DNA of 64,000 bases from Clostridia bacterium. Lineage in GTDB: Bacteria; Bacillota; Clostridia; Oscillospirales; QAKW01. Under the pieces are notes generated by a model. It saw nothing but the letters and a program-made list of their open reading frames with translations. It made no database searches and was not told the DNA's origin. The stretch lies in NCBI GenBank assembly GCA_017440465.1, contig JAFSHF010000031.1, positions 6,064 to 70,063 on the forward strand. Direction: 5' to 3'. The position numbers were made by a program, and so were the translations under genes. Shown here in pieces: positions 13,801 through 56,168 of this stretch. Every line of letters begins with the position of its first letter. The stretch's first letter is position 1.

Positions 13801-15140
13801 CCAATGTGGAAGGAGCGGAAACGGTCTATGTGAAATATAACGATTTAAGCCCCATTAGCTTTGAGATCACCGTCGTTCCGGTGGTGGTTGAGAAGATCGA
13901 GATTACTACCGAACCTGAGCGTAGCTATATTGAAGGGCAGCCTTTGAATGTGGCAGGCGGGATGATCCTCATCACCTATAATAATGAGGATACCGAGCCG
14001 CTGGCGATGGATGCCGCGGGGGTCACCCTTTCGGGCTATGATCCCAATAAGATCGGGGAGCAGACCGTCACCGTTACCTACGGCGGAAAAACCGCTACCT
14101 TTACCGTCAACGTTCGCGCCAGAAAGGCAGTAAGCATCCGTATATCGACTCGACCCAAGACGGAGTACTTAGAGGGCAAGGATACTGCGCTGAATTTAGC
14201 GGGCGGAAAACTGACCGTGTATTATGATAATAATACTTCGGCAACCATCAATCTTACTGACTCGCAGGTTACAGTAAGTGGTTTTAAAGCGACGCAGATC
14301 GGGGATCAAACGATCACAGTAAGCTACCCCGGCGTTTCATCTGCGACCTTTACTATTACGATGAATAAAAAAGCGGTGGAATCCATCGCCATCGCCGCGA
14401 TGCCGACCAAGATGATGTATCGGCAGGGCGTCGAAAAATTTGATCCCGCCGGCGGGTTGATTACGGTTTTTTATAATAACGATACCAAAGAGACCGTCCA
14501 TCTTTCCAAAGCAACCGTCAGCGGATTTTCCAATCTCTTTGCAGGGGATGTCACCGTCACCGCAGTCTATCAAGGCTCTGCGGTGGAGTTTAAGGTGCTG
14601 ATCCTTGCGGAAAATCCCTTTAAAGACGTCAAGGCGAACGAATATTATGAGACGCCGGTTCTTTGGGCGGTGACCAAGGAGATCACCAAAGGAACGGCAG
14701 AGGATACCTTCAGCCCCAACGATGAATGTACCCGCGGCCAGATCGTCACTTTCCTCTGGCGTGCCGCCGGGGAGCCCGCGACCGAAACCGCCAAAAATCC
14801 GTTTAAGGATGTCAAAAAAGGCGAATATCATTATAATGCCGTTCTTTGGGCGGTGGAAAACGGCATCACCAACGGGATGGATGCCACCCACTTTGCTCCC
14901 GATGCCTCTTGTACCCGCGGGCAGGTCGTCACCTTCCTTTGGCGGGCGGCAGGAGAGCCTGCGCCCGAAACCGCCAAAAATCCGTTTAAGGATATCAAAA
15001 AGAGCGAATATTATTATAACGCCGTTCTTTGGACGGTGGAAAACGGCATCACCAACGGAATGACCGACACGACCTTTGCGCCGAATTCAACCTGTACGCG
15101 CGGACATATAGTCACCTTCCTCTACCGCACCTATGACTAA
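10812..15140 (+). CDS. Giant surface protein: N-terminal cohesin-like domain, about 13 bacterial Ig-like repeats, three C-terminal SLH-like repeats
   Basis: Signal peptide MKRIISAVLIL; cohesin-like GETVTVTVAFENIPACGAVDFNLVYD; ~80-aa repeats (KTEYxxGxxLxLxGGxLxVxY..GxQxVTVxY); three near-identical NPFKDVK..WAVENGITNG..CTRGQVVTFLWRAAGEP units. Confidence 0.85.
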   Translation: MKRIISAVLILIMLIPPMVLPAEAATLVQADSAVRITADKAVAAVGETVTVTVAFENIPACGAVDFNLVYDTEYLQAPAKSDVSMNIGGTVKDRNPAYSIDEKTSEEYAGRQAVKVVAAGDSNCLKGSSGTLFTVKFVVANEAPAPGIPLAFFGTFSDLYSNRDLRNTIQVFNTHIATADPTKEVTAVALKQAPTKTEYVQGQALNLEGGRLLVNYDDSSSQEVYLSLAQITQYDFTKLGTQTVKAEYAGKEVSFEIQTEASVLSSISVGQVPATVEYIQGKTAQLDRSEGVLLLHYTGGIVKTLEMSDAEVTLSGYDKDQLGVQKIKVQYGGFETEYKIAVVKKAISDIDVRTPMVCDACGSEWSAFDLIQAADASADPYSMDFNERLTYIKNTANNVTCPSDTCAGATFSTKMKMVYFVGEDFDVGNAKLFVTYSGGTTEEIDMTLDMVEFKNTFATTQNVEVAYGAQWMLIKNVQTRKKEATAITVTRKPKTEYVKGQSFDRTGGIIHVEYNDGSEEDLPMEHEDVRVHYSGMDELGEHRVTVFYESQQAYFYIKVIARVVKSIAVDPEATSTYVRGREPDPDTKLLVTYNDDETETAYLRNATVEGYNSEQIGLQVLTITYGGVNCNWPVTVEEKVVTALEVVGTLPTTVLEETELNLEGCTLTATYNEGKLVEENIAITPDRIKNFDKSQCGLQTVTIEFGEGTVTFEITVLEKSLTSIEVEGVKEQYLLMDALDRSVGKIKLIYNNGTVDYIDFSDENISVEGFQSDVAGEQLVTVEYQGFTDTYPVTVYIEILSISVTPPKKTAYIEGEPLDLTEGFLHITQPNGTINIPLSEGMVSGYEADRIGEQTLTIEVGEHTADFKVTVREKQLTGITVSPETIDHNEWEELDFSQVVVTAWYDNNTSKTVTEEASKAAYDTYVIYTYEGKTATLNVNVIKRAPIFIEWAEEPQKRTYFAGEPLLKDGTIRVHYNDQSNEQLPLTDENVSIIGDTNVEGAETVYVKYNDLSPISFEITVVPVVVEKIEITTEPERSYIEGQPLNVAGGMILITYNNEDTEPLAMDAAGVTLSGYDPNKIGEQTVTVTYGGKTATFTVNVRARKAVSIRISTRPKTEYLEGKDTALNLAGGKLTVYYDNNTSATINLTDSQVTVSGFKATQIGDQTITVSYPGVSSATFTITMNKKAVESIAIAAMPTKMMYRQGVEKFDPAGGLITVFYNNDTKETVHLSKATVSGFSNLFAGDVTVTAVYQGSAVEFKVLILAENPFKDVKANEYYETPVLWAVTKEITKGTAEDTFSPNDECTRGQIVTFLWRAAGEPATETAKNPFKDVKKGEYHYNAVLWAVENGITNGMDATHFAPDASCTRGQVVTFLWRAAGEPAPETAKNPFKDIKKSEYYYNAVLWTVENGITNGMTDTTFAPNSTCTRGHIVTFLYRTYD

Positions 15141-15301
15141 ACCGTTGAAATGGGCGCATCTTCCGATTTTTTGCCCCTCGGCATATCATTATATAGCCGA
15201 GGGATCAAAGAAATCGAAACCTGCATCCCATTTGAACGGTTTCGACCGAGAGCAAAAATGAAATAAAAAATCGACCTTGAATTTCAAGGTCGATTCTTTT
15301 T
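15141..15301 (+). repeat. Module X copy 1: conserved leader, two hairpins and a terminator (candidate small RNA / 3'UTR element)
   Basis: Starts at the stop codon of the 10812 gene. Hairpin 1 is 15175-15203 (CCCTCGGC/GCCGAGGG, loop ATATCATTATATA). Hairpin 2 is 15214-15245. Terminator is 15271-15301. Confidence 0.6.
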
Positions 15302-16262
15302 GTAGGGAACAGGTTTTCCATCCCGCTATGATCCGTACCAAATGAATTGGTACGAAACAATCCAAACGATTTGGGTGTACCAAATGAATTGGTACGGAAG
15401 CATACAAATGATTTGTATATGCACAATTGAATTGTGGATCGAAACACAAATGATTTGGGGTACCAAATGATTTGTTAGGCACAGATATTTAATTAATTTG
15501 TAGGGGACGATTGTCTTCATCGTTCCGCTTTTGCCGTACCAAATGAATTGGTACGAAAGCATACAAATGATTTGTATGTGCACAATTGAATTGTGGATCG
15601 AAACACAAATGATTTGGGGTACCAAATGATTTGTTAGGCACAGATATTTAATTAATTTGTAGGGGAAGATTGTCTTCATCGTCCCGCTTTTGTCGTACCA
15701 AATGAATTGGTACGAAACAATCCAAACGATTTGGGTGTACCATATGAATTGGTACGAAAGCATACAAATGATTTGTATGTGCACAATTGAATTGTGCACG
15801 ATCCCTTTGCAACATCAAAAAATTCATCGCAAGCCGTTGTTTGCTCGATATTTTTTGTGTTGCGGCAGCTGCTAACCTGCTCCCTTCATCGTCCCGTTTG
15901 CAACATCAAAATATTCATCGCGCGGTGCGCTCGATATCTTTTGTGTTGCGGCACCTGCTAACCTGCTCCCTTCATCGTCCCGTTTGCAACATCAAAATAT
16001 TCATCGCGCGGTGCGCTCGATATCTTTTGTGTTGCGGCACCTGCTAACCTGCTCCCTTCATCTGCCACTGGCAGCGGTCGCAGTCGCAACCACAGGCAGC
16101 GGTCACAGTCGCAACCAAATGAATTGGCACGAAAAACACAAAAGATTTGTGTTTCATACCCCAAATGAATTGGGGGTACCAAATGATTTGGTAGGTGACC
16201 GCCCAAACGAATTGTGGACAAAAAAAAGAAGTGTGCATCGAAACACAAATGATTTGGGGGTT
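15302..16262. repeat. CAAWTGAWTTG palindrome mosaic, locus 1 (about 23 cores, in 159-198 bp higher-order units opened by GTAG hairpins)
   Basis: Examples: GTACCAAATGAATTGGTAC at 15335-53, 15377-95 and 15536-54; also CATACAAATGATTTGTATG, GCACAATTGAATTGTGC and CCCCAAATGAATTGGGG. GTAG hairpins at 15302, 15500 and 15659. Confidence 0.85.
15806..16062. repeat. Tandem repeat, 3 units of 91/86/~80 bp, embedded in locus 1
   Basis: Units start at 15806, 15897 and 15983. Units 2 and 3 are identical where both are present. Each unit can form a long hairpin GCAACATCAAAA...TTTTGTGTTGC. Confidence 0.85.
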
Positions 16263-21327: not shown

Positions 21328-21447
21328 AAAAATCACTTCCTTATAGTTTATTCTAAACGATTTTACTTTAGAAGACAAGATTTAATTGAAAAATTGGTTG
21401 ATTTCGTGTATATTAGAAATAGAAATTAAAAAGAAAGGAGTTTTTAT

Positions 21448-23478
21448 ATGAATACACCCATCAAGCAGTTATACGGCATCGGTGCGACCCGCGAAAAACT
21501 CCTTTTGAAATTGGGGATCGAAACCTATGGGGATCTGCTCCGTTGCTATCCCCGCCGCTATGAAGATCGGTCGGTGGTGATCCCCATCGATGAAGCGTCG
21601 ATGCATATGGGGGAGCCCATCAGCATTGTCGCCACCGTGGTGGGCGTTCCCGAAGAACGCCGTATCCGCGGCGGGCGGATCTTGAGCCGTTTTTCGGTGG
21701 AGGACGATTCGGGGCTGATGACCCTGACCTATTTCAATAATCCTTATATTAAAGATAAACTCAAGGTGGGAAAGACCTTTAATTTCTATGGGGTCTGCGA
21801 CCCCAAGATGCTGCTGCATATGGTGGCGCCCCAAGCGGAAGAACTCAAAGCGGGGGAGCAACCCCGCATCCTGCCGGTCTATCCGCTGACTGCGGGGCTG
21901 AACCAGCCTCAGATGCGCCGCTGGGTGGGGCAGGCGATGGCGCGTCTTGCGGGCAAACTGCCCGATCCTCTGCCCGCGCGACTGCGGGAAAAATATGGAT
22001 TAATGGAACTCAATGATGCGTTGCAGGCGATCCACTTTCCCAAGGACCACGCCGCCATCGCGGCGGGGCGGCGGAGGCTGATTTTTGAAGAACTGCTGTA
22101 TTTCCAATTAGGGGTCAACCTTTTCTCCCGCAGGGAAAAGGACCAAAACCGCTTCCCCATCGGCAAGAGCGACGGCGGTTTTTTGGCGTTGCAACCCTTT
22201 ACCCCCACGCCCTCTCAGCAAACAGCGGTGGCAGAGATCCTGGCAGATATGCAGGGAGATTTTGCGATGAACCGCTTGCTGCAGGGCGATGTGGGCAGCG
22301 GCAAGACCTATGTGGCGGGCGAGGCGGCGTATGCCGCCCTTTCGGCAGGCTATCAGGTGGCGATGATGGCGCCCACCGAGATTTTGGCCCGCCAGCACGC
22401 AGACTATTTCCGCCCGCTCTTTGAACAGCTCGGGTATTCCACCGACCTTTTGGTGGGGTCGCTGACCGCCAAGCAAAAGCGGGAAGCCTATGCCCGCCTG
22501 CAAAGCGGCGAGACCCGCCTCATCATCGGCACCCACGCGTTGTTGCAGCAGAAGGTGGAATTTCAACAATTGGGCTTGGTGATCGCCGACGAACAGCATC
22601 GGTTCGGCGTCCGCCAGCGCGCCGCCTTGGCGGCAAAAGGGCAAAAGCCCCATATTTTAATTATGTCTGCCACCCCCATTCCGCGCACTATGGCGCTGAT
22701 GGTATGGGGCGATCTGGACCTTTCGGTGCTGGAGGGCTTGCCCTCAGGCAGAAAGCCCATCCAAAGCTTTTTGGTGGATTCCACCTATCAGGAGCGGTTG
22801 CTGGGCTTTATGGATAAGCAGATGGAAGAAGGCGGCCAGATCTATATCGTCTGCCCGCTGGTGGAGGAAAATCCCGAGGCGGATCTCCAGAGTGCCGAAG
22901 CGTTGTTTGAAGCATTGAAGGAGCAGTACGGCGATGCCGCCGATATGATCCACGGCAAGATGAAGGCCGCTAAAAAAGACGAAGCGATGGCAAAATTTGT
23001 GGCGGGGGAAACCAAAGTGCTGGTCTCTACCACCGTGATTGAAGTGGGCATCAACGTCCCCAATGCGACGATGATGGTCCTGATGAACGCCGAGCGGTTC
23101 GGGCTTTCCCAGCTCCATCAGCTGCGCGGGCGGGTCGGGCGTGGGGAGAAGCAATCCTATTGTATTTTGGTCTCCGACCATCAAAATCCAAAAACGCGGG
23201 AACGGCTGGATTATTTCTGCTCCACCACCGATGGCTTTGCCATTGCCGAAAAGGACCTGCAACTGCGCGGCCCCGGCGATTTCCTCGGCGATATGCAGCA
23301 TGGGATGCCCCAAATGCAGTTGGCGGGGCTGACGAGTGATATGGAACTGCTGACCCTTTCCAACCGTTGCGCCAAGCGGATGCTGGAATTTGATCCCGAC
23401 CTGCAGGCGCCCTATAATCAAGCCATCCGCCAAAAAGTGTTTGAACTTTTTAACGATCAAAGCATCATTTTTAATTGA
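21448..23478 (+). CDS. recG: ATP-dependent DNA helicase RecG
   Basis: Wedge domain plus SF2 helicase motifs GDVGSGKT, DEQHRFG, QLHQLRGRVGRG. Confidence 0.95.
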   Translation: MNTPIKQLYGIGATREKLLLKLGIETYGDLLRCYPRRYEDRSVVIPIDEASMHMGEPISIVATVVGVPEERRIRGGRILSRFSVEDDSGLMTLTYFNNPYIKDKLKVGKTFNFYGVCDPKMLLHMVAPQAEELKAGEQPRILPVYPLTAGLNQPQMRRWVGQAMARLAGKLPDPLPARLREKYGLMELNDALQAIHFPKDHAAIAAGRRRLIFEELLYFQLGVNLFSRREKDQNRFPIGKSDGGFLALQPFTPTPSQQTAVAEILADMQGDFAMNRLLQGDVGSGKTYVAGEAAYAALSAGYQVAMMAPTEILARQHADYFRPLFEQLGYSTDLLVGSLTAKQKREAYARLQSGETRLIIGTHALLQQKVEFQQLGLVIADEQHRFGVRQRAALAAKGQKPHILIMSATPIPRTMALMVWGDLDLSVLEGLPSGRKPIQSFLVDSTYQERLLGFMDKQMEEGGQIYIVCPLVEENPEADLQSAEALFEALKEQYGDAADMIHGKMKAAKKDEAMAKFVAGETKVLVSTTVIEVGINVPNATMMVLMNAERFGLSQLHQLRGRVGRGEKQSYCILVSDHQNPKTRERLDYFCSTTDGFAIAEKDLQLRGPGDFLGDMQHGMPQMQLAGLTSDMELLTLSNRCAKRMLEFDPDLQAPYNQAIRQKVFELFNDQSIIFN

Positions 23479-23762: not shown

Positions 23763-23908
23763 GTAAAAGACTTGGATATTTGCGCAGACCGAAAAAGCAA
23801 AAAATAAAGAAAAAATAAATGCTTTAATCTCTGCGTAACCAAAAAATAGGAATAAAAGCGGCTCAAATGAGCCGCTTTTAATTTAAAATTTTTTGCTTTT
23901 TCTATCGC

Positions 23909-23956
23909 CGATCTCGGCGTCTACCGTACCGATGTACGCCGACGCCACCGAGATCG
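23909..23956. repeat. L-hairpin copy 2 (same loop, stem CGATCTCGG/CCGAGATCG)
   Basis: Read directly. Confidence 0.75.
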
Positions 23957-24158
23957 AAGATTCTGCATCAAATCTTCAAGTCTTTTACAGTTTCTGCTCC
24001 TACATAAGTCTGTGCGAAAAGGCGGATATTGGCGCAGACCGCAAAAAACAAAAAAGAAATAATATAGGTCTTTTCAGTTTATGCGAATGCGAAGAATAAG
24101 GAATAAAAGCGGCTCATTTGAGCCGCTTTTAATTTAACTTTTTGTTTTTTGCTATTTC

Positions 24159-24382
24159 CGATCTCGGTGCGGGGAAGCGGGGGTAATTTTGCCTTGCCGC
24201 AAAAAGCGGTCGAAGATTTTTAAAACAGACGAATTTCGGTTGAGCAAGGCAAAAGCGCAGGCAATACCGTCGTATTGCCGAGCATTTTAACGCAGCACAG
24301 GCGGAATTGGTCGGTTTAAAAACAAGGATAAAGTTACCCCCGCTTCCCCTTGTACCGATGTACGCCGACGCCACCGAGATCG
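24159..24382. repeat. L-hairpin copy 3, interrupted in its loop by element E1
   Basis: Left stem at 24159-67 and right stem at 24374-82; the loop remnant GTACCGATGTACGCCGAC follows E1. Confidence 0.7.
24171..24349. mobile_element. Foldback element E1 (179 bp, 16-bp perfect terminal inverted repeat GGGGAAGCGGGGGTAA)
   Basis: Present in one of two otherwise homologous L-hairpin loops; its internal core is homologous to E2. Confidence 0.45.
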
Positions 24383-24485
24383 AAAATTCTACATCCAATC
24401 TTCGCCTTTTTGGTGGTTCCTGCTTCTACATAAGTCTGTGCGTAAAAATGCGCAGACCGCAAAAAACAAATTTAATTTCATAGTG

Positions 24486-24955
24486 CTATAAAACTCGAAT
24501 GATTTTTTTGTGCTGTTTTATAGCGTAATCAAGGGCGATTTTGGTGCCGCTTTTGCGGGTGGTTGGGGTGCGCTGTTCATTGTAATAGACGATGCAAAAA
24601 TGGCTATGATCGATCATTTCATAATTGCGCTCGACATAAGATGCTTTTCCTGCGTTCAGTATCTTTTCGGGATAATAGGTGTCTTCATAAGTTTCAAGTA
24701 AGTAGTTTTTATAGTGCTCGCTTATATAAGGATATTCCGCTCGCACATAAACGCGCTTTATGTGTGGGTGTTTTTCTTTTATCTCAGACACGATTTCAAG
24801 GCACAAATTATTAAACCGGCTCTTACTTCCGAAAAGGAACGTATCAACTTTTCGTCTACGATCAGTTTTTCGATGACTTCAAAAAGGCACACTTTTAGTT
24901 CTGCGGTTTCGTTTATCGTTCTATGTCCAAAAAAGCAACATATATTGTTCTTCAT
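24486..24955 (-). pseudogene. SLOG/DUF1273-like protein gene interrupted by a single frameshift
   Basis: ATG at 24955 reads MKNNICCFFGHRTINETAELKVCLFEVIEKLIVDEK. The homology (VDTFLFGSKSRFNNLCLEIV...) then continues in another frame that joins track ORF 24486..24806. The switch lies at an A4 run near 24848-24853. Confidence 0.6.
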
Positions 24956-25323: not shown

Positions 25324-25537
25324 GTAGGGGACGGGTTTCCCGTCCCGCTATGACCCGCAACCAAATGAATTGGTAGGGGTAACAAATGAATTGGTGGGGG
25401 GGTAACAAATGATTTGGTAGGGGGACATACAAATGATTTGTAGGCTTGCACAAATGATTTGTGCAAAGAACGTAGCAAATGAATTGGTACAGTAATGCAC
25501 AAATGAATTGTGCAACAGACCCCAAATCATTTGGGGT
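25324..25537. repeat. CAAWTGAWTTG palindrome array, locus 2 (8 cores, opened by a GTAG hairpin)
   Basis: GTAGGGGACGGGTTTCCCGTCCC at 25324, then 8 cores, ending with the inverted CCCCAAATCATTTGGGG next to the TTGACA -35. Confidence 0.85.
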
Positions 25538-31698: not shown

Positions 31699-32790
31699 AT
31701 GAAAAATTTTGCCTTATTGATTACCGCCCAGGGATGCTCTCTGACCGGCGGATATATTCAGACCTTGGTGCTTTCCTGGATCGCCGCCAAGCAGAGTGGA
31801 GGTGTGCCGCTGGCGTGGTATATGATCGCCTGCTATCTGCCGGTGGCGGTGCTCTCCTACCCGCTGGGGCGGTTTTTGGACGGAAAACACCTAAAGCCTT
31901 GGCTGATCTCCAGCGAGATCGGGTTGGCGGCTCTGTCGCTGTTGCTTTGGCTGGCGGCGGTGTTTGAATGGTTGAGTTTCCCTTTTCTGCTGGTGTTTGG
32001 CGGGGTGTGGGGATGCGTTCGCGCTCTGCAGACGCCCATCTACCAAAGCCTGCCCAAGCGGCTTGCCAAGGACCTCAAAAAAGGAACGGCGCTGTTGACC
32101 GCCGTCACCTACGCCGCCCGCGGCCTCGGGCCCATATTAGGCGGGCTTCTTTATGCCAAGTGGGGCGCGGCGGTGCCGTTTTCGGTCAATTTCGCCTCGT
32201 TCATCCCCTCGGTGGCCTTGCTCTGCTTTTTGAAAATTCCCCAAGGGGAGCGGGGGCAAAAGCCGCGGCTGAAGGGTTGGATCTCTCCGCTCTTGCGCAT
32301 TTTTGCGGTGGGATTTTTCGGGGTGCAATATAACGTCACCTTTGTATCCCTCATCAAAGAGGCGGGCAAGGGCAGTGCCGCCTACGGCATTGCGCTGGGG
32401 CTGCTGGGGCTGGGTGCCTTGGCGGGCTTTTTGATCAAGACCCGCTTCAAAAAAGAACTCCCCCGCTTTGTTGCTGTCGGCGGGATGGGGGTTTTGAACC
32501 TGCTGCTGTTGTTGCGGTGGGGGATGGTCTGGCAGAGTGCTTGCATTTTGCTCTACGGCAGTTTGGATTTTTGGTTTTTCGCCCAAAGCAGTTATCAGCT
32601 TTCCCGCGCCGCCAAGGAGCGGGAGTTGACGGCGGTGATGGGGTTATATACGATCGCTACCGTCGGCGCGATGCCGCTGGGCGCGTTGCTTTGGAGTTGG
32701 GTCTCCAAGGCGGCAGGGCTTTCGGCAACGTTTTCTGCCATCGGCGGCGCACTATTGATTTTGGCTATTATTGAAAAAAGGAGAAGGTGA
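31699..32790 (+). CDS. MFS transporter
   Basis: 363-aa polytopic ORF; its stop codon lies inside the left arm of foldback element E2. Confidence 0.8.
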   Translation: MKNFALLITAQGCSLTGGYIQTLVLSWIAAKQSGGVPLAWYMIACYLPVAVLSYPLGRFLDGKHLKPWLISSEIGLAALSLLLWLAAVFEWLSFPFLLVFGGVWGCVRALQTPIYQSLPKRLAKDLKKGTALLTAVTYAARGLGPILGGLLYAKWGAAVPFSVNFASFIPSVALLCFLKIPQGERGQKPRLKGWISPLLRIFAVGFFGVQYNVTFVSLIKEAGKGSAAYGIALGLLGLGALAGFLIKTRFKKELPRFVAVGGMGVLNLLLLLRWGMVWQSACILLYGSLDFWFFAQSSYQLSRAAKERELTAVMGLYTIATVGAMPLGALLWSWVSKAAGLSATFSAIGGALLILAIIEKRRR

Positions 32791-33058
32791 CAAGAATAAT
32801 CCGAATCTGCCTCAAAGCAGGACATTTCGGTGCTTTTCGCCCATTTTTCCTTGATAGGCGCCGGCCTATCTGCAAAAAAGATGAACAAAAATCCCACGAA
32901 ATCTCCGTGCTTTGTGGTCGAAGATTTTAAAAAGAGCGGATTTTTGTTTCATCAAGGCATAAAACACAGCCAATGCCGGCGCATTGGCGAGTATTTTAAC
33001 GAGGAGGAAACGGAAATCCGCCTTTTTAAAACAAGGTTCGGATTATTCTTGTCACCTT
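32784..33058. mobile_element. Foldback element E2 (275 bp, 22-bp perfect terminal inverted repeat AAGGTGACAAGAATAATCCGAA)
   Basis: The left arm contains the TGA stop of the MFS gene. The right arm ends 4 nt before the pepD ATG. The core (GGTCGAAGATTTTAAAAAG..hairpin..GAGTATTTTAACG..TTTTTAAAACAAGG) is shared with E1. Confidence 0.45.
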
Positions 33059-33062
33059 AAGT

Positions 33063-34448
33063 ATGAACAGAGTATTTGAAATTTTTGAAGAACTTTCCGC
33101 CATTCCCAGAGAATCGGGCAATGTCAAAGCAGTGTCCGATTGGTGCGCCGCCTATGCGAAAAAGCGGGGATTTGAAGCGGTGCAGGATGCGCACCGGAAC
33201 TGCCTCATCCGCGTCCCCGCCTCCAAGGGCAAGGAAGATCATCCCATCGTCATTTTGCAGGGGCATTTAGATATGGTCTGCGAAAAGGAGGAGGGCAACC
33301 CCCATAATTTTGAGACCGACCCCATCCAAGTGAAAAAGGACGGCGATTGGCTGACCGCCAACGGCACCACCCTGGGCGGGGATAACGGCATCGCCATCGC
33401 CTATTGCTTAGCGTTGCTGGATGAAACCGAAGTTTCCCATCCCGCGCTGGAACTGTTTTTCACCGCCGATGAAGAGACGGGGATGTTCGGCGCGTTCGGG
33501 TTCGACCCCGCGCTTCTTAAGGGGCGGCGGCTGTTGAATTTAGATTCGGAAGAAGAAGGGGCCATCTATGTCTCCTGCGCGGGCGGCAAAAAGGTCGACG
33601 GGCGGATGAAACTGACTTGGGAAGAATGTGATAAACCCGCCTGCACCATCACCGTTTCGGGCTTGCAGGGCGGTCATAGCGGCGCCGAGATCCATCAAGG
33701 CAGAGCCAATGCCAATATTCTGCTGGGTAAGATTTTGGCGGGTCTAAATTGCCGATTGATCTCCATCGATGGCGGCAAAAAGGCGAACGCCATCCCCCGC
33801 TCCGCCACCGCGGTGGTCGCCACCGAGCAGGCGTTGGAGAGCGAAACGCTGACCGCGCTCTTTCAAAGAGAATATGGGGCAAAGGACCCCGATGTTAAGG
33901 TAGAAGTGGCGCATACCACCGCCAAAAAGATGATGACCAAGGACTGCTCCGATGGGGTGATCCGCCTGCTTTCCGCCCTGCCCGATGGGGTGCGGGAATG
34001 GAGCACCGAGATCGAGGGCTTGGTGGAGACCTCCCTCAACTGCGGCATTATCGAAACAAGCGAGGAAGAACTGTTTGCCCTCACCTCCATCCGCAGTATG
34101 AAAAACGCCAAGCGGGATGCGCTGGCGGAGCAGGTGGTAACGCTGATGCAGGACTGCGGCTTTGCCGCCAAGGCGGATGGCGAATATCCCGCCTGGGAAT
34201 ACCGCGCCGACTCCCCCCTGCGGGAGGCGGTCGCCGAGGGCTGGAAAAAGATCAGCGGCAAAGAGCCCAAGATCATCGCCATCCACGCAGGGCTGGAGTG
34301 CGGTCTGTTTGACCAAAAACTCGAAGGGCTGGACGCGGTGTCCATCGGCCCCAATATGCAGGATATCCATACCCCGCGGGAGCGGCTTTCCATTGCTTCA
34401 AGCGTGCGGGTCTGGGAATGGCTGTGTAAAGTGCTGGAAACACTTTAA
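33063..34448 (+). CDS. pepD: Aminoacyl-histidine dipeptidase (M20C, PepD)
   Basis: N-terminal IFEELSAIPRESG; HLDMV and TADEETGM metal-binding motifs; 461 aa. Confidence 0.9.
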   Translation: MNRVFEIFEELSAIPRESGNVKAVSDWCAAYAKKRGFEAVQDAHRNCLIRVPASKGKEDHPIVILQGHLDMVCEKEEGNPHNFETDPIQVKKDGDWLTANGTTLGGDNGIAIAYCLALLDETEVSHPALELFFTADEETGMFGAFGFDPALLKGRRLLNLDSEEEGAIYVSCAGGKKVDGRMKLTWEECDKPACTITVSGLQGGHSGAEIHQGRANANILLGKILAGLNCRLISIDGGKKANAIPRSATAVVATEQALESETLTALFQREYGAKDPDVKVEVAHTTAKKMMTKDCSDGVIRLLSALPDGVREWSTEIEGLVETSLNCGIIETSEEELFALTSIRSMKNAKRDALAEQVVTLMQDCGFAAKADGEYPAWEYRADSPLREAVAEGWKKISGKEPKIIAIHAGLECGLFDQKLEGLDAVSIGPNMQDIHTPRERLSIASSVRVWEWLCKVLETL

Positions 34449-35094: not shown

Positions 35095-35461
35095 AATGAC
35101 CTCCGTCGGTGATGGCGATGTCGTTCATTCCAACGCCCGCATCTTCGTCGTTGACGGTGATCCACCAGAACGCTTTGTCCGCCTCCCAGCTTGCCTCAAT
35201 GCCGTCGATGACGGTATACATCCCGTCCTTGGCGTAGTCCACCAAGCCCTCTTCCACCAAGGCGTCGGCCAAAAACTCCGCGTCGGTGGCTATTTCGTGC
35301 TCCTTGGAGGTGCCGTCTTTTTGCACCACCTCAAAGACAATCGCTTTGTTTCCTTCGTTGGGATCGGCAGAAGATCCTTTCCAAAGAAACACCGCGCCGA
35401 TGATCAGCCCGACCAAAAGAACCGCGCTGATCGCAATCAAAAACAGTTGCTTTTTCTTCAT
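35063..35461 (-). CDS. DUF4430-domain secreted/anchored protein
   Basis: Start set at MKKKQLFLIAIS (ATG at 35461, SD AAAGGAGA); the upstream part of track ORF 35063..35659 is riboswitch leader. Confidence 0.7.
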   Translation of the reverse strand: MKKKQLFLIAISAVLLVGLIIGAVFLWKGSSADPNEGNKAIVFEVVQKDGTSKEHEIATDAEFLADALVEEGLVDYAKDGMYTVIDGIEASWEADKAFWWITVNDEDAGVGMNDIAITDGGHYEATYTISTY

Positions 35462-35604
35462 TGCGTGTTTTCTCCTTTTATAAAGTTGTTTTTTCTCCGT
35501 GATCGAAACACCTTTTTTTGCACACCCCACCGTTCGTTGCATCCTTCTGCCCGATGCACAAACGATGAAATGTGGCCATTCATCGTGACGAGCATATTGA
35601 TCTT

Positions 35605-35750
35605 CTGCGCGGAAAGTATTCCGGCTCGCAACTAAAACGCATCCGCTTCGCCTTCCCATTTTTTAAAAAACAGTGGCATAATGAAGCCTCGCTCGTTGCA
35701 CACGGCGGCGGGACCGCGGGGGCATCGCACCCCTCTTCCATCCCGCGCAG
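35605..35750 (-). promoter_or_regulatory. Cobalamin (B12) riboswitch aptamer
   Basis: Minus strand: P1 CTGCGCGG (35743-35750) pairs with CCGCGCAG (35605-12); GGAUGGAAGAGGGGUGCGAUGCCCCCGCGGUCCCGCCGCCGUGU core; B12 box GCCACUG (35671-77) followed by GGGAAGGC. Confidence 0.75.
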
Positions 35751-35769
35751 ATTGGAGATCTTGACTAAT

Positions 35770-55553: not shown

Positions 55554-55769
55554 CCGTTGAAATCGGCGCAGACCGACAGGAATAAGGAAAGAACCTGCCT
55601 TGGCAGGTTCTTTTTTATGTCTTTTCCGTTTTTTCACCTTCGGCATATCATTATATAGCCGAAGGATGAAAGAAACGAAAATCTGCATCCAATTTGAACG
55701 GTTTTAGGGAAGAGATTTAAAAAGAATGAAAAAGAACCGACCTTGAAAGGTCGGTTCTTCTATTTTTTT
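55554..55769 (+). repeat. Module X copy 2
   Basis: Starts at the stop codon of yloV with the same CCGTTGAAATSGGCGCA leader. Hairpin 1 is 55637-55665 (CCTTCGGC/GCCGAAGG, identical loop). Hairpin 2 is 55676-55707. Terminator is 55734-55769. Confidence 0.6.
55591..55616 (+). terminator. Intrinsic terminator of yloV
   Basis: GAACCTGCC/GGCAGGTTC stem plus T6. Confidence 0.8.
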
Positions 55770-55777
55770 AAGGGGCT

Positions 55778-55980
55778 GTACCAAATGAATTGGGAGGTAC
55801 CAAATGATTTGTTAGGAAGGCGAATAAATGAATTATGCATAGAGCGTACCAAAAGAATTGGTACGGAAACATACAAATGATTTGTATATACCCCAAATGA
55901 ATTGGGGGGGGTACCAAATGAATTGTATATACCCCAAATGAATTGGGGGGACCAAATGATTTGTTAGGAAGGTGCACAAA
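55778..55980. repeat. CAAWTGAWTTG palindrome array, locus 3 (9-10 cores)
   Basis: GTACCAAATGAATTGGGA, CATACAAATGATTTGTAT, ACCCCAAATGAATTGGGGGG (twice), GTACCAAAAGAATTGGTAC and others. Confidence 0.8.
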
Positions 55981-56168
55981 TTCGACCTCTACATGTTATT
56001 TATAATTCGTCTGCGAGGCAGACACCGAAATTATTCATTATTCATCAGCGTAAGCGACTTCATTATTCATTGAAAATTCTGTCGAATGAATGATGAATAT
56101 TGAATAATGAAAAATGAATAATACAAAACAAAAATCCCATCGACTTGCAGTCGACAGGATTTTCGTTT

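Follow-up and report, generated by a model that had tools for sequence, protein, structure and literature searches.

A TA-inserting family with the hallmarks of a MITE in gut Oscillospirales, and a copy lodged between the Shine-Dalgarno sequence and the start codon of pepD

E2, the element found between the stop codon of an MFS transporter gene and the start codon of pepD in the window (the whole stretch of 64,000 nucleotides analyzed here), very probably belongs, as a canonical copy, to a family of non-autonomous DNA transposons, or MITEs, that insert at TA; its terminal helix would maintain the translation of pepD, and two other elements, E1 and E3, are probably immobile derivatives. The repeat family to which E2 belongs is widespread in gut Oscillospirales and, for the gut Clostridia, apparently undescribed. 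We regard E2 as a canonical MITE because its termini are those of the family at large and because it inserted at a single TA where no palindrome pre-existed. The features concerned, in positions of the window, are as follows.

24171..24349, + strand: E1, a single-module relative (alignment, fold, profile)
24208-24323: R module of E1
31699..32790, + strand: MFS transporter gene (open reading frame; Pfam MFS_1/MFS_3)
32778..32783, + strand: ancestral Shine-Dalgarno sequence of pepD, AAGGAG (comparison with empty sites)
32783..32784, no strand: target-site duplication, left TA, which now reads GA (family flanks and empty-site comparison)
32784-33058: E2, the whole element, between the MFS stop and the pepD start
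32785..32808, + strand: left terminal inverted repeat, AGGTGACAAGAATAATCCGAATCT
32809..32915, + strand: left hairpin domain (L module), whose apical stem GATAGGC/GCCTATC shows covariation among the copies (minimum free energy fold; helices 2-4)
32916..32924, + strand: unpaired inter-domain junction, GGTCGAAGA
32925..33031, + strand: right hairpin domain (R module), the "core" in common with E1 (alignment, fold, helices 5-6)
32969-32988, + strand: apical hairpin of the R module
33034..33057, + strand: right terminal inverted repeat, AGGTTCGGATTATTCTTGTCACCT
33058..33059, no strand: right copy of the TA target-site duplication
33063..34448, + strand: pepD, intact, coding for an aminoacyl-histidine dipeptidase of the M20 family (open reading frame, domain match)

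A scan of the genome collection returned at least 119 loci, about 110 of them true copies, in about 85 species-level MAGs among the matches listed; the hosts are gut Oscillospirales (Acutalibacteraceae, Faecousia and relatives), and the scan pattern was based on the right module, E1- and E3-type derivatives lying outside its reach. Delimited by their own inverted repeat, the copies are uniform in length (272-283 nt as delimited, for an element of 270-276 nt) and have a common terminal consensus, TA/RGGTGAC-n6-WAATCCGAAC ... GTTCGGATT-n6-GTCACCY/TA (71 distinct copies were used for the consensus and for covariation, and 69 for the flank count). Each end is an inverted repeat of about 23-25 bp, made of two conserved blocks (RGGTGAC and WAATCCGAAC) with a variable hexamer between them; over about 85 species, canonical copies keep the sequence of the blocks GGTGAC and AATCCGAA. 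The arms of E2 (32784-32808 and 33034-33058) are 96% complementary over 25 nt, the outer 22 nt being perfect, exactly as had been read from the sequence alone, and its termini are the family consensus, common to more than 70 further copies at unrelated loci. Copies at other loci of a sister species are 97.8% and 96.3% identical to E2, and near-identical copies recur within single MAGs, at least seven in CALEII01 and at least four each in JAZNQF01 and CALGEL01. The family conserves its interior as well as its termini. The sequence-only reading had proposed that the termini vary around a conserved core, in a reversal of MITE logic, and had itself named the sharing of these termini by other copies as the observation that would count against it; with more than 70 such copies the proposal falls. 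It is E1, and not E2, that is the outlier, with the right module only, a private helix and no TA duplication.

The E2 family has terminal inverted repeats, a target duplication, a small non-coding body, multiple and polymorphic copies and a predicted stem-loop closed by the termini, all properties of the MITE class as defined elsewhere (PMC2229807; PMC10969869). Its size is somewhat above the 100-200 bp typical of that class, and it carries neither a transposase nor a conserved open reading frame. A small protein encoded by the element was considered and rejected, the frame of a 76-aa open reading frame being open in only 5 of the 71 copies. Gene callers label the element as a hypothetical protein of 60-76 aa.

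The family inserts at a TA dinucleotide and duplicates it. TA stands at both flanks in 50 of the 69 copies; in the flank profile, the left side has T (-2) in 62/71 and A (-1) in 64/71, and the right side T in 66/71 and A in 60/71, the preferred target context being T-TA-A, often beside a ribosome-binding site. At a first pair of filled and empty sites, pepD orthologs (91, 88, 85 and 74% identity) that lack the element read ATTATTGAAAAAAGGA-TA-AATAAAC-ATG. The empty MFS-pepD junctions hold a single TA (AAAAGGA-TA-AATAAAC-ATG), and no palindrome, no inverted copy of the flank and nothing like either arm of E2 was found in the orthologous ones. At a second, TA/element/TA precedes recG at locus L135, against a lone TA in the window. 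The SDR-recG spacer received two independent insertions, in two lineages, and presence or absence of the element at pepD, recG and SDR is polymorphic between relatives. In the lineage of the window, the target of E2 was the TA of AAAGGA-TA-AAT, which lay between the pepD start codon and its Shine-Dalgarno sequence; the insertion replaced the last MFS residues and broke an ancestral MFS/pepD overlap. The MFS stop codon TGA (32788-32790) does lie within the left arm, as had been noted from the sequence; it is supplied by the GGTGA of the repeat, and the protein ends in ...IIEKRRR here versus ...IIEKRINKHEQRI in relatives. The junction was altered after the insertion of E2, since the left duplication copy is GA and not TA, by a T-to-G change that turns AAGGAT into AAGGAG, and since the closest empty sites have a right spacer longer by 4 nt. 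Both pepD and E2 are 100% identical and intact in four independent assemblies.

E1 and E2 have a common core of about 120 nt, as the sequence-only reading recognized. The motif GGTCGAAGATTTT.AAAA occurs only at 24208 and 32916 (0.04 chance matches expected), the block GAG.ATTTTAACG is confirmed in both elements, and the kinship is also seen in a pairwise alignment and in an nhmmer match on the E1 core (76 bits, E = 1.6e-21). The compensatory replacement reported for the central hairpin is likewise evident in the alignment (GGCAATAC/GTATTGCC versus GCCAATGC/GCATTGGC), and the same columns covary across the 71 copies. The arms of E1 (GGGGAAGCGGGGGTAA and TTACCCCCGCTTCCCC) form a private outer helix of about 26 bp and, in line with the earlier claim that they are unrelated to those of E2, their derivation from a diverged canonical repeat is unsupported (permutation p = 0.57; 8/21 in register, p = 0.15). 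E1 retains a basal remnant of the L domain (CCTTGCCGCAAAAAGCGG), has no TA duplication, and lies within a hairpin downstream of recG-SASP, that of the second of the "U" repeat units (CCGATCTCGG...CCGAGATCG). The idea that E1 entered a pre-existing hairpin is thus borne out as to its location, but the hairpin does not supply the arms; five empty U units (L135-L139) and the empty unit 1 of the window hold no sequence like them. A metagenome scan for the left junction of E1 type (GCCGCA-n4-GCGGTYGAARATTTT) gave four matches, all by chance in GC-rich coding DNA, so E1-type copies are rare. Homoplasy in the distribution of E1 was not demonstrable, the three closest lineages being nearly equidistant (RecG 93-95%).

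A third type, E3, is found in relatives, keeps the left module only and is located at the aptamer/platform junction of a riboswitch (cobalamin aptamer). Its arms are a paired but diverged canonical repeat (14/24 in register, p = 0.002), and the empty E3 site in the window has no E3-arm-like sequence. A second repeat type shared by E1 and E3, suspected by eye (GGGRA..TGGCAAG), is unsupported (all p > 0.28). E1 and E3 are probably older immobile deletion derivatives, each having kept one module, whose outer helices have drifted while staying paired.

The predicted fold of E2 (-123 kcal/mol; z = -12.6 versus shuffled controls, with z = -10.5 for E1) is a three-helix junction, comprising the terminal helix and two independently folding hairpin domains. 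Nothing in Rfam 15 reached gathering score on E1 or E2, where only sub-threshold noise appeared at E up to 10. Across the 71 copies, 88.9% of cells are paired versus 37-54% with slid partners, and covariation analysis, which the sequence-only reading had suggested, found double changes in 67 of the 106 pairs, the observed values being reached by 0 of 500 shuffles. Pairs with double changes number 14, 4 and 6 in helices 2-4 (L domain) and 17 and 4 in helices 5-6 (R domain); the variable hexamer of the repeat also covaries (columns 7-13, up to 40/71 double changes), while the invariance of the junction GGTCGAAGA is by construction in this sample, the junction having formed part of the search pattern. 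G.U and A.C cells are equally frequent in the outer helix (69 vs 66), which is what a DNA-level repeat would be expected to show. The inner domains show a mirrored strand asymmetry and a weak homology of the left domain to the reverse complement of the right. Because the + strand gives the better fold for the R domain (57/71) and the - strand for the L domain (68/71), the G.U excess is mirrored and not strand-wide, and the idea that the inner structure belongs to one RNA strand was rejected. The covariation of the internal stems and the conserved internal loops (CAAGGCA..AAAAC and GAGTATTTTAACG in the R module) are not needed by a substrate of a DDE transposase; they imply an additional constraint, from RNA, ssDNA or protein binding, which is outside what the MITE model explains. 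Nor does the MITE model account for the orientation bias of the copies, given the near-symmetric ends of the element: a Shine-Dalgarno sequence with start codon lies beyond the right end of 23/69 copies and beyond the left end of 3/69.

E2 ends at 33058, 4 nt before the ATG of pepD at 33063, as first read, and no Shine-Dalgarno sequence lies in between, because the ancestral one is now on the other side of the element, 280 nt 5' of the ATG in linear sequence. The earlier statement that E2 must supply or mask the expression signals of pepD was half right: the gap exists, and the ancestral AAGGAG lies 5' of the element. A hybrid promoter-like site also occurs at 32771-32800. In the fold predicted with flanks, the Shine-Dalgarno sequence is unpaired and abuts the helix, the 25-bp terminal helix being immediately preceded by GGAG (32780-32783) and followed after 4 nt by the AUG. 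Possibly, the terminal repeats pair in the mRNA, so that the helix closes off the 273-nt insert; closure would then set GGAG and AUG at the two feet of the helix, in a hairpin-bridged "split" ribosome-binding site through which, we infer, pepD is still translated. The spacing proper to a split site, with Shine-Dalgarno sequence and AUG within about 5-11 nt of each other via the helix, is found in the predicted fold only. Three more copies in forward orientation lie between an SD-like motif and an ATG, at the genes for CoaE, an SDR and a HATPase protein. The gene coaE is normally essential, and the CoaE encoded next to the family copy has a Pfam match from residue 1. In genes 38 and 25 of phage T4, structure brings the Shine-Dalgarno sequence and AUG from 22 to 5 nt and from 27 to 11 nt, respectively, and mutations that destabilize the structure lower initiation (PMC3014915). 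E2 likewise separates the two signals by an intervening structure; the T4 inserts, however, are short hairpins evolved in place, whereas E2 is a 273-nt transposon whose effect we infer.

It is conceivable, if somewhat doubtful, that helix closure renders these elements "topologically silent" within compact functional RNA, that host selection keeps their pairing and not their sequence, and that immobile copies lose modules and drift, E3 and then E1. The 25-bp stem would begin exactly at the ends of the insert and so leave the flanks unseparated, whether between Shine-Dalgarno sequence and AUG (pepD, coaE, the SDR gene and the HATPase gene), between cobalamin aptamer and expression platform (E3) or within another hairpin (E1). 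Once an element had lodged, selection at the level of the host on the interrupted signal would keep the helix paired.

Selection of the outer helix for base pairing only, as RNA or ssDNA structure and irrespective of its sequence, is a related reading that we consider tentative at best. The covarying hexamer, with its up to 40/71 double changes, agrees with it, as do the arms of E3, which differ from those of E2 at 10/24 positions yet are 26/28 complementary, and the helix of two E1 orthologs, whose differences comprise five compensatory pairs, two wobble changes and one disruption; moreover, closure would matter at the sites of all three elements, E1, E2 and E3 (hairpin, ribosome-binding site and riboswitch aptamer/platform junction). 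With the private helix of E1 and the diverged but paired arms of E3, a helix kept for pairing and not for sequence, as the sequence-only reading had envisaged, is reasonable for these derivatives, but canonical copies keep the sequence of the repeat: the conservation of GGTGAC and AATCCGAA and the parity of G.U and A.C fit the recognition of duplex DNA ends by a protein. Two ends co-evolving with one transposase would also yield "covariation". Template-switch correction of quasipalindromes during replication could also maintain complementary arms in the absence of selection. That E2 is primarily a structured regulatory RNA encoded by the host, a leader or riboregulator of pepD, and is not mobile, is very unlikely. 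Its strong fold (z = -12.6) and covariation, its place in a 5' leader and the orientation bias relative to downstream genes would suit such an RNA, but it matches no Rfam family, is missing from the pepD leader in every close relative, and stands beside unrelated genes in about 85 genomes, in several copies per genome and with TA duplications. Regulatory RNA as the sole explanation is already contradicted; an RNA-level role may be layered on the mobility of E2.

Even less can be said for a mobile core that inserts into pre-existing hairpins, or makes palindromic flanks by inverted duplication of its target, so that the arms are specific to each site, as had been proposed from the sequence; we regard this as extremely improbable in general and already refuted for E2. 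The position of E1 inside the hairpin of a U unit, and the departure of the E1 and E3 arms from the canonical repeat, speak for it. The empty MFS-pepD sites, however, have a single TA and neither a palindrome nor E2-arm-like sequence, the arms of E2 recur at unrelated loci in more than 70 copies, the empty U units and the empty E3 site are equally devoid of arm-like sequence, and the E3 arm shows in-register homology with the canonical repeat and none with its flank. We give almost no credence to a hairpin-dependent system without the logic of repeat and duplication, be it a PATE of IS200/IS605 type, REP/REPIN with a RAYT, or a retron msr-msd. The outer helix, internal hairpins and conserved unpaired motifs do resemble a retron ncRNA or the subterminal hairpins of IS605, but the E2 family combines a 2-bp duplication with long terminal inverted repeats, both of which, to our knowledge, are lacking in the IS200/IS605 family. 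Moreover, the neighbours of E2 are MFS and pepD, with no gene for a reverse transcriptase, TnpA or TnpB, and there is no match in Rfam, which includes HEARO and related families.

As for the origin of the MITE, the L and R domains, weakly recognizable as inverted copies of each other, could derive from the two ends of a parent IS fused by internal deletion, each parental end then consisting of the repeat and a subterminal hairpin. A DDE transposase acting in trans and recognizing the conserved blocks of the repeat would move the element. This enzyme was probably IS630-like; the IS630/Tc1-mariner type is the likeliest because it is the classical TA-duplicating family, the assignment being made from the TA duplication alone. 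An autonomous partner was not found: in about 1 Mb of loci, matching ends did not occur as a second pair and no end had a transposase next to it, and searches by regex and HMM for additional or single ends recovered only truncated relics (L026, L064, L066, L067 and L097) and no interval of transposase length. E2 had no blastn match among plasmid and phage records. In viral contigs the core pattern gave one chance match, and the repeat pattern 47 matches, none of which has an inverted partner with fewer than 6/22 mismatches; most represent one recurring phage coding sequence. We likewise know of no enzyme that mobilizes the TA-duplicating Correia elements of Neisseria.

The closest known systems share part of this design. 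RUP, the repeat unit of pneumococcus, is a Firmicutes MITE mobilized by IS630-Spn1; it duplicates the TA at which it inserts, occurs in multiple intergenic copies, and has stops in all frames and a transcript forming a long stem-loop (PMC2229807). The E2 family resembles it in its terminal inverted repeats, TA insertion and duplication, and multiple copies; compared by description, however, RUP measures 107 bp and has contiguous 9-bp repeats matching a known IS, whereas the E2 family has about 275 nt, repeats of 23-25 bp, two covarying hairpin domains and no identified parent IS. Correia/NEMIS elements have inverted repeats of about 24 bp, TA termini and duplication, and size variants formed by internal deletion; they are co-transcribed with neighbouring genes, and their RNA hairpin affects the fate of the mRNA (PMC2229807). 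They differ in belonging to another phylum, in their smaller size (107-155 bp), in an IHF site and in a single foldback stem, in contrast to the three-helix junction of the E2 family. For the CIR elements of Caulobacter and Brucella, which are conserved across species, the RNA model consists of two long arms that fold independently and are joined by a linker (PMC2229807), but CIR has a GANTC methylation motif and neither terminal inverted repeats nor a clear duplication, unlike the E2 family with its repeats and TA duplication.

The family has the classical hallmarks of a MITE and, in three helices, an unusually strong covariation, and resides in abundant but uncultured gut Oscillospirales, where a covariance model of it would clean up many MAG annotations. 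The series E2, E3, E1 offers a dated sequence of the decay of transposon ends when only pairing still matters. Intact genes, coaE among them, repeatedly have a copy between Shine-Dalgarno sequence and start codon. Should the terminal helix rebuild the ribosome-binding site, these copies would be a clean natural test of split-site initiation and would explain how a transposon is tolerated within the most sensitive nucleotides of a compact genome. If the elements are indeed topologically silent, they would represent a transposon family adapted to insertion near ribosome-binding sites, and natural, transposon-derived expansion domains in bacterial leaders.

E2 is a TA-duplicating MITE, a known class of element. 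Its perfect 22-bp terminal inverted repeat, its span from the MFS stop codon to 4 nt before the pepD ATG and the lack of an SD between its right arm and that ATG are as the sequence-only reading had described them:

31699–32790, MFS open reading frame, with the TGA stop (32788–32790) within the E2 left arm
32778–32783, ancestral pepD SD (AAGGAG), in which the final G derives by mutation from a T of the left duplication copy
32784–32808 and 33034–33058, E2 arms, 25 nt, 96% complementary, outer 22 nt perfect
33063, pepD start, 4 nt past the E2 right arm

The same reading held that E2 reverses the logic of a MITE, with a conserved core and unrelated termini, but these termini turn out to be the consensus across copies. 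Termini shared with other copies were the outcome that this reading had itself named as its refutation, and the proposed reversal is not supported. A scan with the pattern GGTCGAAGATTTT-N50-80-TTTTAACG, using one genome per species, returned at least 119 loci; among the matches listed, about 110 are true copies, found in about 85 MAGs labelled Acutalibacteraceae, Faecousia, Oscillospiraceae, Eubacteriales or Clostridia and derived from ruminant and human guts. The invariance of GGTCGAAGATTTT and TTTTAACG in the alignment is an artefact of the use of this search pattern. With the ends of each copy set by its best terminal inverted repeat, copy length is uniform (272–283 nt, flanking TA counted in) and the end consensus is T(T)A/RGGTGAC-n6-WAATCCGAAC(C) ... 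GGTTCGGATT-n6-GTCACCY/TA(A), where slashes mark the boundaries. Moreover, 71 distinct copies can be aligned over their entire 270–276 nt, including the left half that is absent in E1, the smaller relative of E2. The E2 arms thus represent the family consensus, and E1 is the exception. Copies at unrelated loci in a sister species match E2 at 97.8% and 96.3% identity, and the median copy matches it at about 68%. In one MAG the element is present in at least seven near-identical copies. The copies share no conserved reading frame. Public gene calls place hypothetical proteins of 60–76 aa inside some of them (a 76-aa ORF in L120–L122, a 68-aa ORF at L135:2107–2313), but we consider these calls spurious because the frame is open in only 5 of the 71 copies. 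The features seen in this family are those that define a bacterial MITE (PMC2229807, PMC10969869).

TA is present at both flanks of 50 of 69 copies, with the flank profile T-TA/.../TA-A. E2 is present and identical in all strains that share an identical pepD, and pepD orthologs at 91, 88, 85 and 74% identity have an empty junction, ATTATTGAAAAAAGGA-TA-AATAAAC-ATG, at which MFS and pepD overlap by 17–26 nt; the filled junction in the window reads ...AAAAGGA-GA-[element]-TA-AGT-ATG. The empty junctions, at all four ortholog identities, contain no palindrome and no arm-like sequence, which does not support a scenario in which the core inserts into, or generates, palindromic flanks at E2. A second filled and empty pair is clean: locus L135 has TA/element/TA just 5′ of the recG RBS, at a position occupied in the window by a single TA. 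This copy (L135:2211–2477) and that at L110:3303–3575 are two independent insertions of one MITE subfamily in the ~130-bp SDR–recG divergent spacer of two sister lineages, the former before the recG RBS and the latter between the SD and ATG of the SDR gene, adjoining its start codon; the window (21330–21450) is empty at both sites. Because TA is duplicated, we infer that an IS630/Tc1-mariner-type transposase is the mover; no autonomous partner IS was found in about 1 Mb of fetched loci, plasmid and phage records, and viral contigs.

Folding energies relative to shuffled controls gave z = −12.6 for E2 and −10.5 for E1, and neither matches an Rfam family. RNAalifold returned a three-helix junction with compensatory changes in 43 of 59 pairs and, when the E2 MFE structure was projected onto the 71-copy alignment, 88.9% of cells were paired (37–54% with slid partners) and 67 of 106 pairs showed double changes, with none of 500 shuffles reaching any observed measure. 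The outer helix consists of conserved blocks and a covarying hexamer, contains G.U and A.C cells equally often (69 vs 66), and behaves like a DNA-level repeat. The right domain (32925–33031) is stabler on the plus strand in 57 of the 71 copies and the left domain (32809–32915) on the minus strand in 68, so that at each end the favoured folding strand has its 3′ end toward the terminus. This mirrored preference, together with a weak match between the left half and the reverse complement of the right half (E = 3e-5), suggests that one kind of end, a "repeat plus subterminal hairpin", is present twice in the element, as inverted copies that have diverged. For a simple DDE substrate, neither the covariation nor the conserved internal loops (CAAGGCA, AAAAC, GAGTATTTTAACG) would be required.

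Two further forms, E1 and the left-module-only E3, depart from the canonical repeat (the family terminal inverted repeat):

24171–24349, E1, arms GGGGAAGCGGGGGTAA / TTACCCCCGCTTCCCC
L127:4538–4712 and L126:4433–4605, E3, 175 nt, left hairpin only

The common core of E1 and E2 noted from the sequence is not due to chance, because a shared 19-mer occurs in the window only at these two sites (0.04 expected); the pairwise alignment, which also bears out two compensatory pair differences in the central hairpin, and the family HMM (76 bits for E1) concur. E1 interrupts a tandem duplication in the window whose first unit lacks it, and it is likewise an insertion with respect to five orthologous recG–SASP loci (RecG identity 95–79%); among the compared lineages, only CALGEL01 (RecG 93%) has it at the same site. 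It lacks a TA duplication (empty site CGGCGT-CTACC-GTACC, filled CGGCGT-[E1]-TT-GTACC). Since E1 retains the left-domain base CCTTGCCGCAAAAAGCGG, it is an internal-deletion derivative; no relation was found between its outer ~20 bp and the canonical repeat. Comparison of the two E1 orthologs shows 15 differing positions in the ~52-nt helix, with five compensatory pairs among them. E3, which came to light during retrieval of pepD orthologs, has a left module 84–85% identical to that of E2, enclosed by a 28-bp helix, GGGAATGGCAAGACAAAACATAACCTTT / AAAGGTTCTGTTTTGTCTTACCATTCCC. It separates a cobalamin riboswitch aptamer from the expression platform, lying 1–2 nt from the 3′ end of the former; this site is empty in the window (35440–35600). 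The L126 and L127 arms show one compensatory pair difference. In register, the E3 left arm matches that of E2 at 14 of 24 positions (p = 0.002) and that of the L135 copy at 14 of 21 (p = 0.0007), so that the E3 helix is a diverged canonical repeat with about ten positions altered on both arms; no relationship was found between E1 and E3 arms.

Possibly, immobilised copies shed one module and their repeat sequence but retain the helix, and the series from canonical copies through E3 to E1 is consistent with such decay. The weaker proposal, that an outer helix can be kept for pairing and not for sequence, survives for E1 and E3. The decayed helices could stay paired because the helix preserves an interrupted host signal; alternatively, template switching during replication could keep quasipalindromes symmetric.

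The duplication around E1 consists of a ~250-nt "U" unit 3′ of recG–SASP (23841–24091 and 24092–24520). Both copies of the unit contain a terminator-like hairpin that is bidirectional, AAAAGCGGCTC...GAGCCGCTTTT, a conserved hairpin, CCGATCTCGG...CCGAGATCG, and the motif GCGCAGACCGCAAAAAACAA; the six related lineages that were compared (L110, L135–L139) all conserve one or two such units. The unit has no Rfam match and may be a small RNA or a 3′-UTR element. Other features of the window are:

15334–16235, 25363–25511 and 55776–55989, arrays of a short palindromic unit (GTACCAAATGAATTGGTAC, variants such as CAAATGATTTG), 13 copies in three clusters, a repeat family distinct from E
15167–15242 and 55629–55704, 76-nt dispersed repeat, 87% identical, with hairpin GCCCCTCGGCATATCATTATATAGCCGAGGG, adjoining palindromic-unit clusters
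14611–15092, three 183-nt tandem repeats, 71–83% identical, apparently a coding repeat
15843–16100, three 86-nt tandem repeats, 69–98% identical
35594–35762, minus strand, cobalamin riboswitch, above the Rfam gathering score
57256–57360, plus strand, THF riboswitch, above the Rfam gathering score
56172–56256, minus strand, tRNA, above the Rfam gathering score

E2 inserted at a TA immediately 3′ of the ancestral pepD SD, and 280 nt of linear sequence now separate that SD from the AUG. In the fold predicted with flanks, the SD is unpaired and directly adjoins the terminal helix on the 5′ side, with the AUG 4 nt beyond the helix on the 3′ side. In this predicted layout, with SD and AUG on either side of a helix, E2/pepD resembles phage T4 genes 38 and 25, in which a hairpin bridges a split RBS and hairpin-destabilising mutations cut initiation (PMC3014915). 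Four of 69 copies, all in forward orientation, separate an SD-like motif from the ATG of an ORF of at least 183 aa: pepD, CoaE (whose Pfam match begins at residue 1), an SDR and a HATPase-domain protein. A start codon with its SD is found no more than 30 nt from the right end in 23 of 69 copies and from the left end in 3; a possible source of this orientation bias is the polarity of terminator-like hairpins on the opposite strand. A promoter-like site (32771–32800; TTGAAA, 18 nt, AATAAT; 10 of 12 positions match) also spans the left junction, with its −35 in the MFS 3′ end and its −10 in the E2 left repeat; as a promoter, this hybrid site would owe its existence to the insertion and would read into E2 and pepD. 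The repeated splitting of SD and AUG, and the helix-closed derivatives inside regulatory leaders, are the features of this family that merit experiment.
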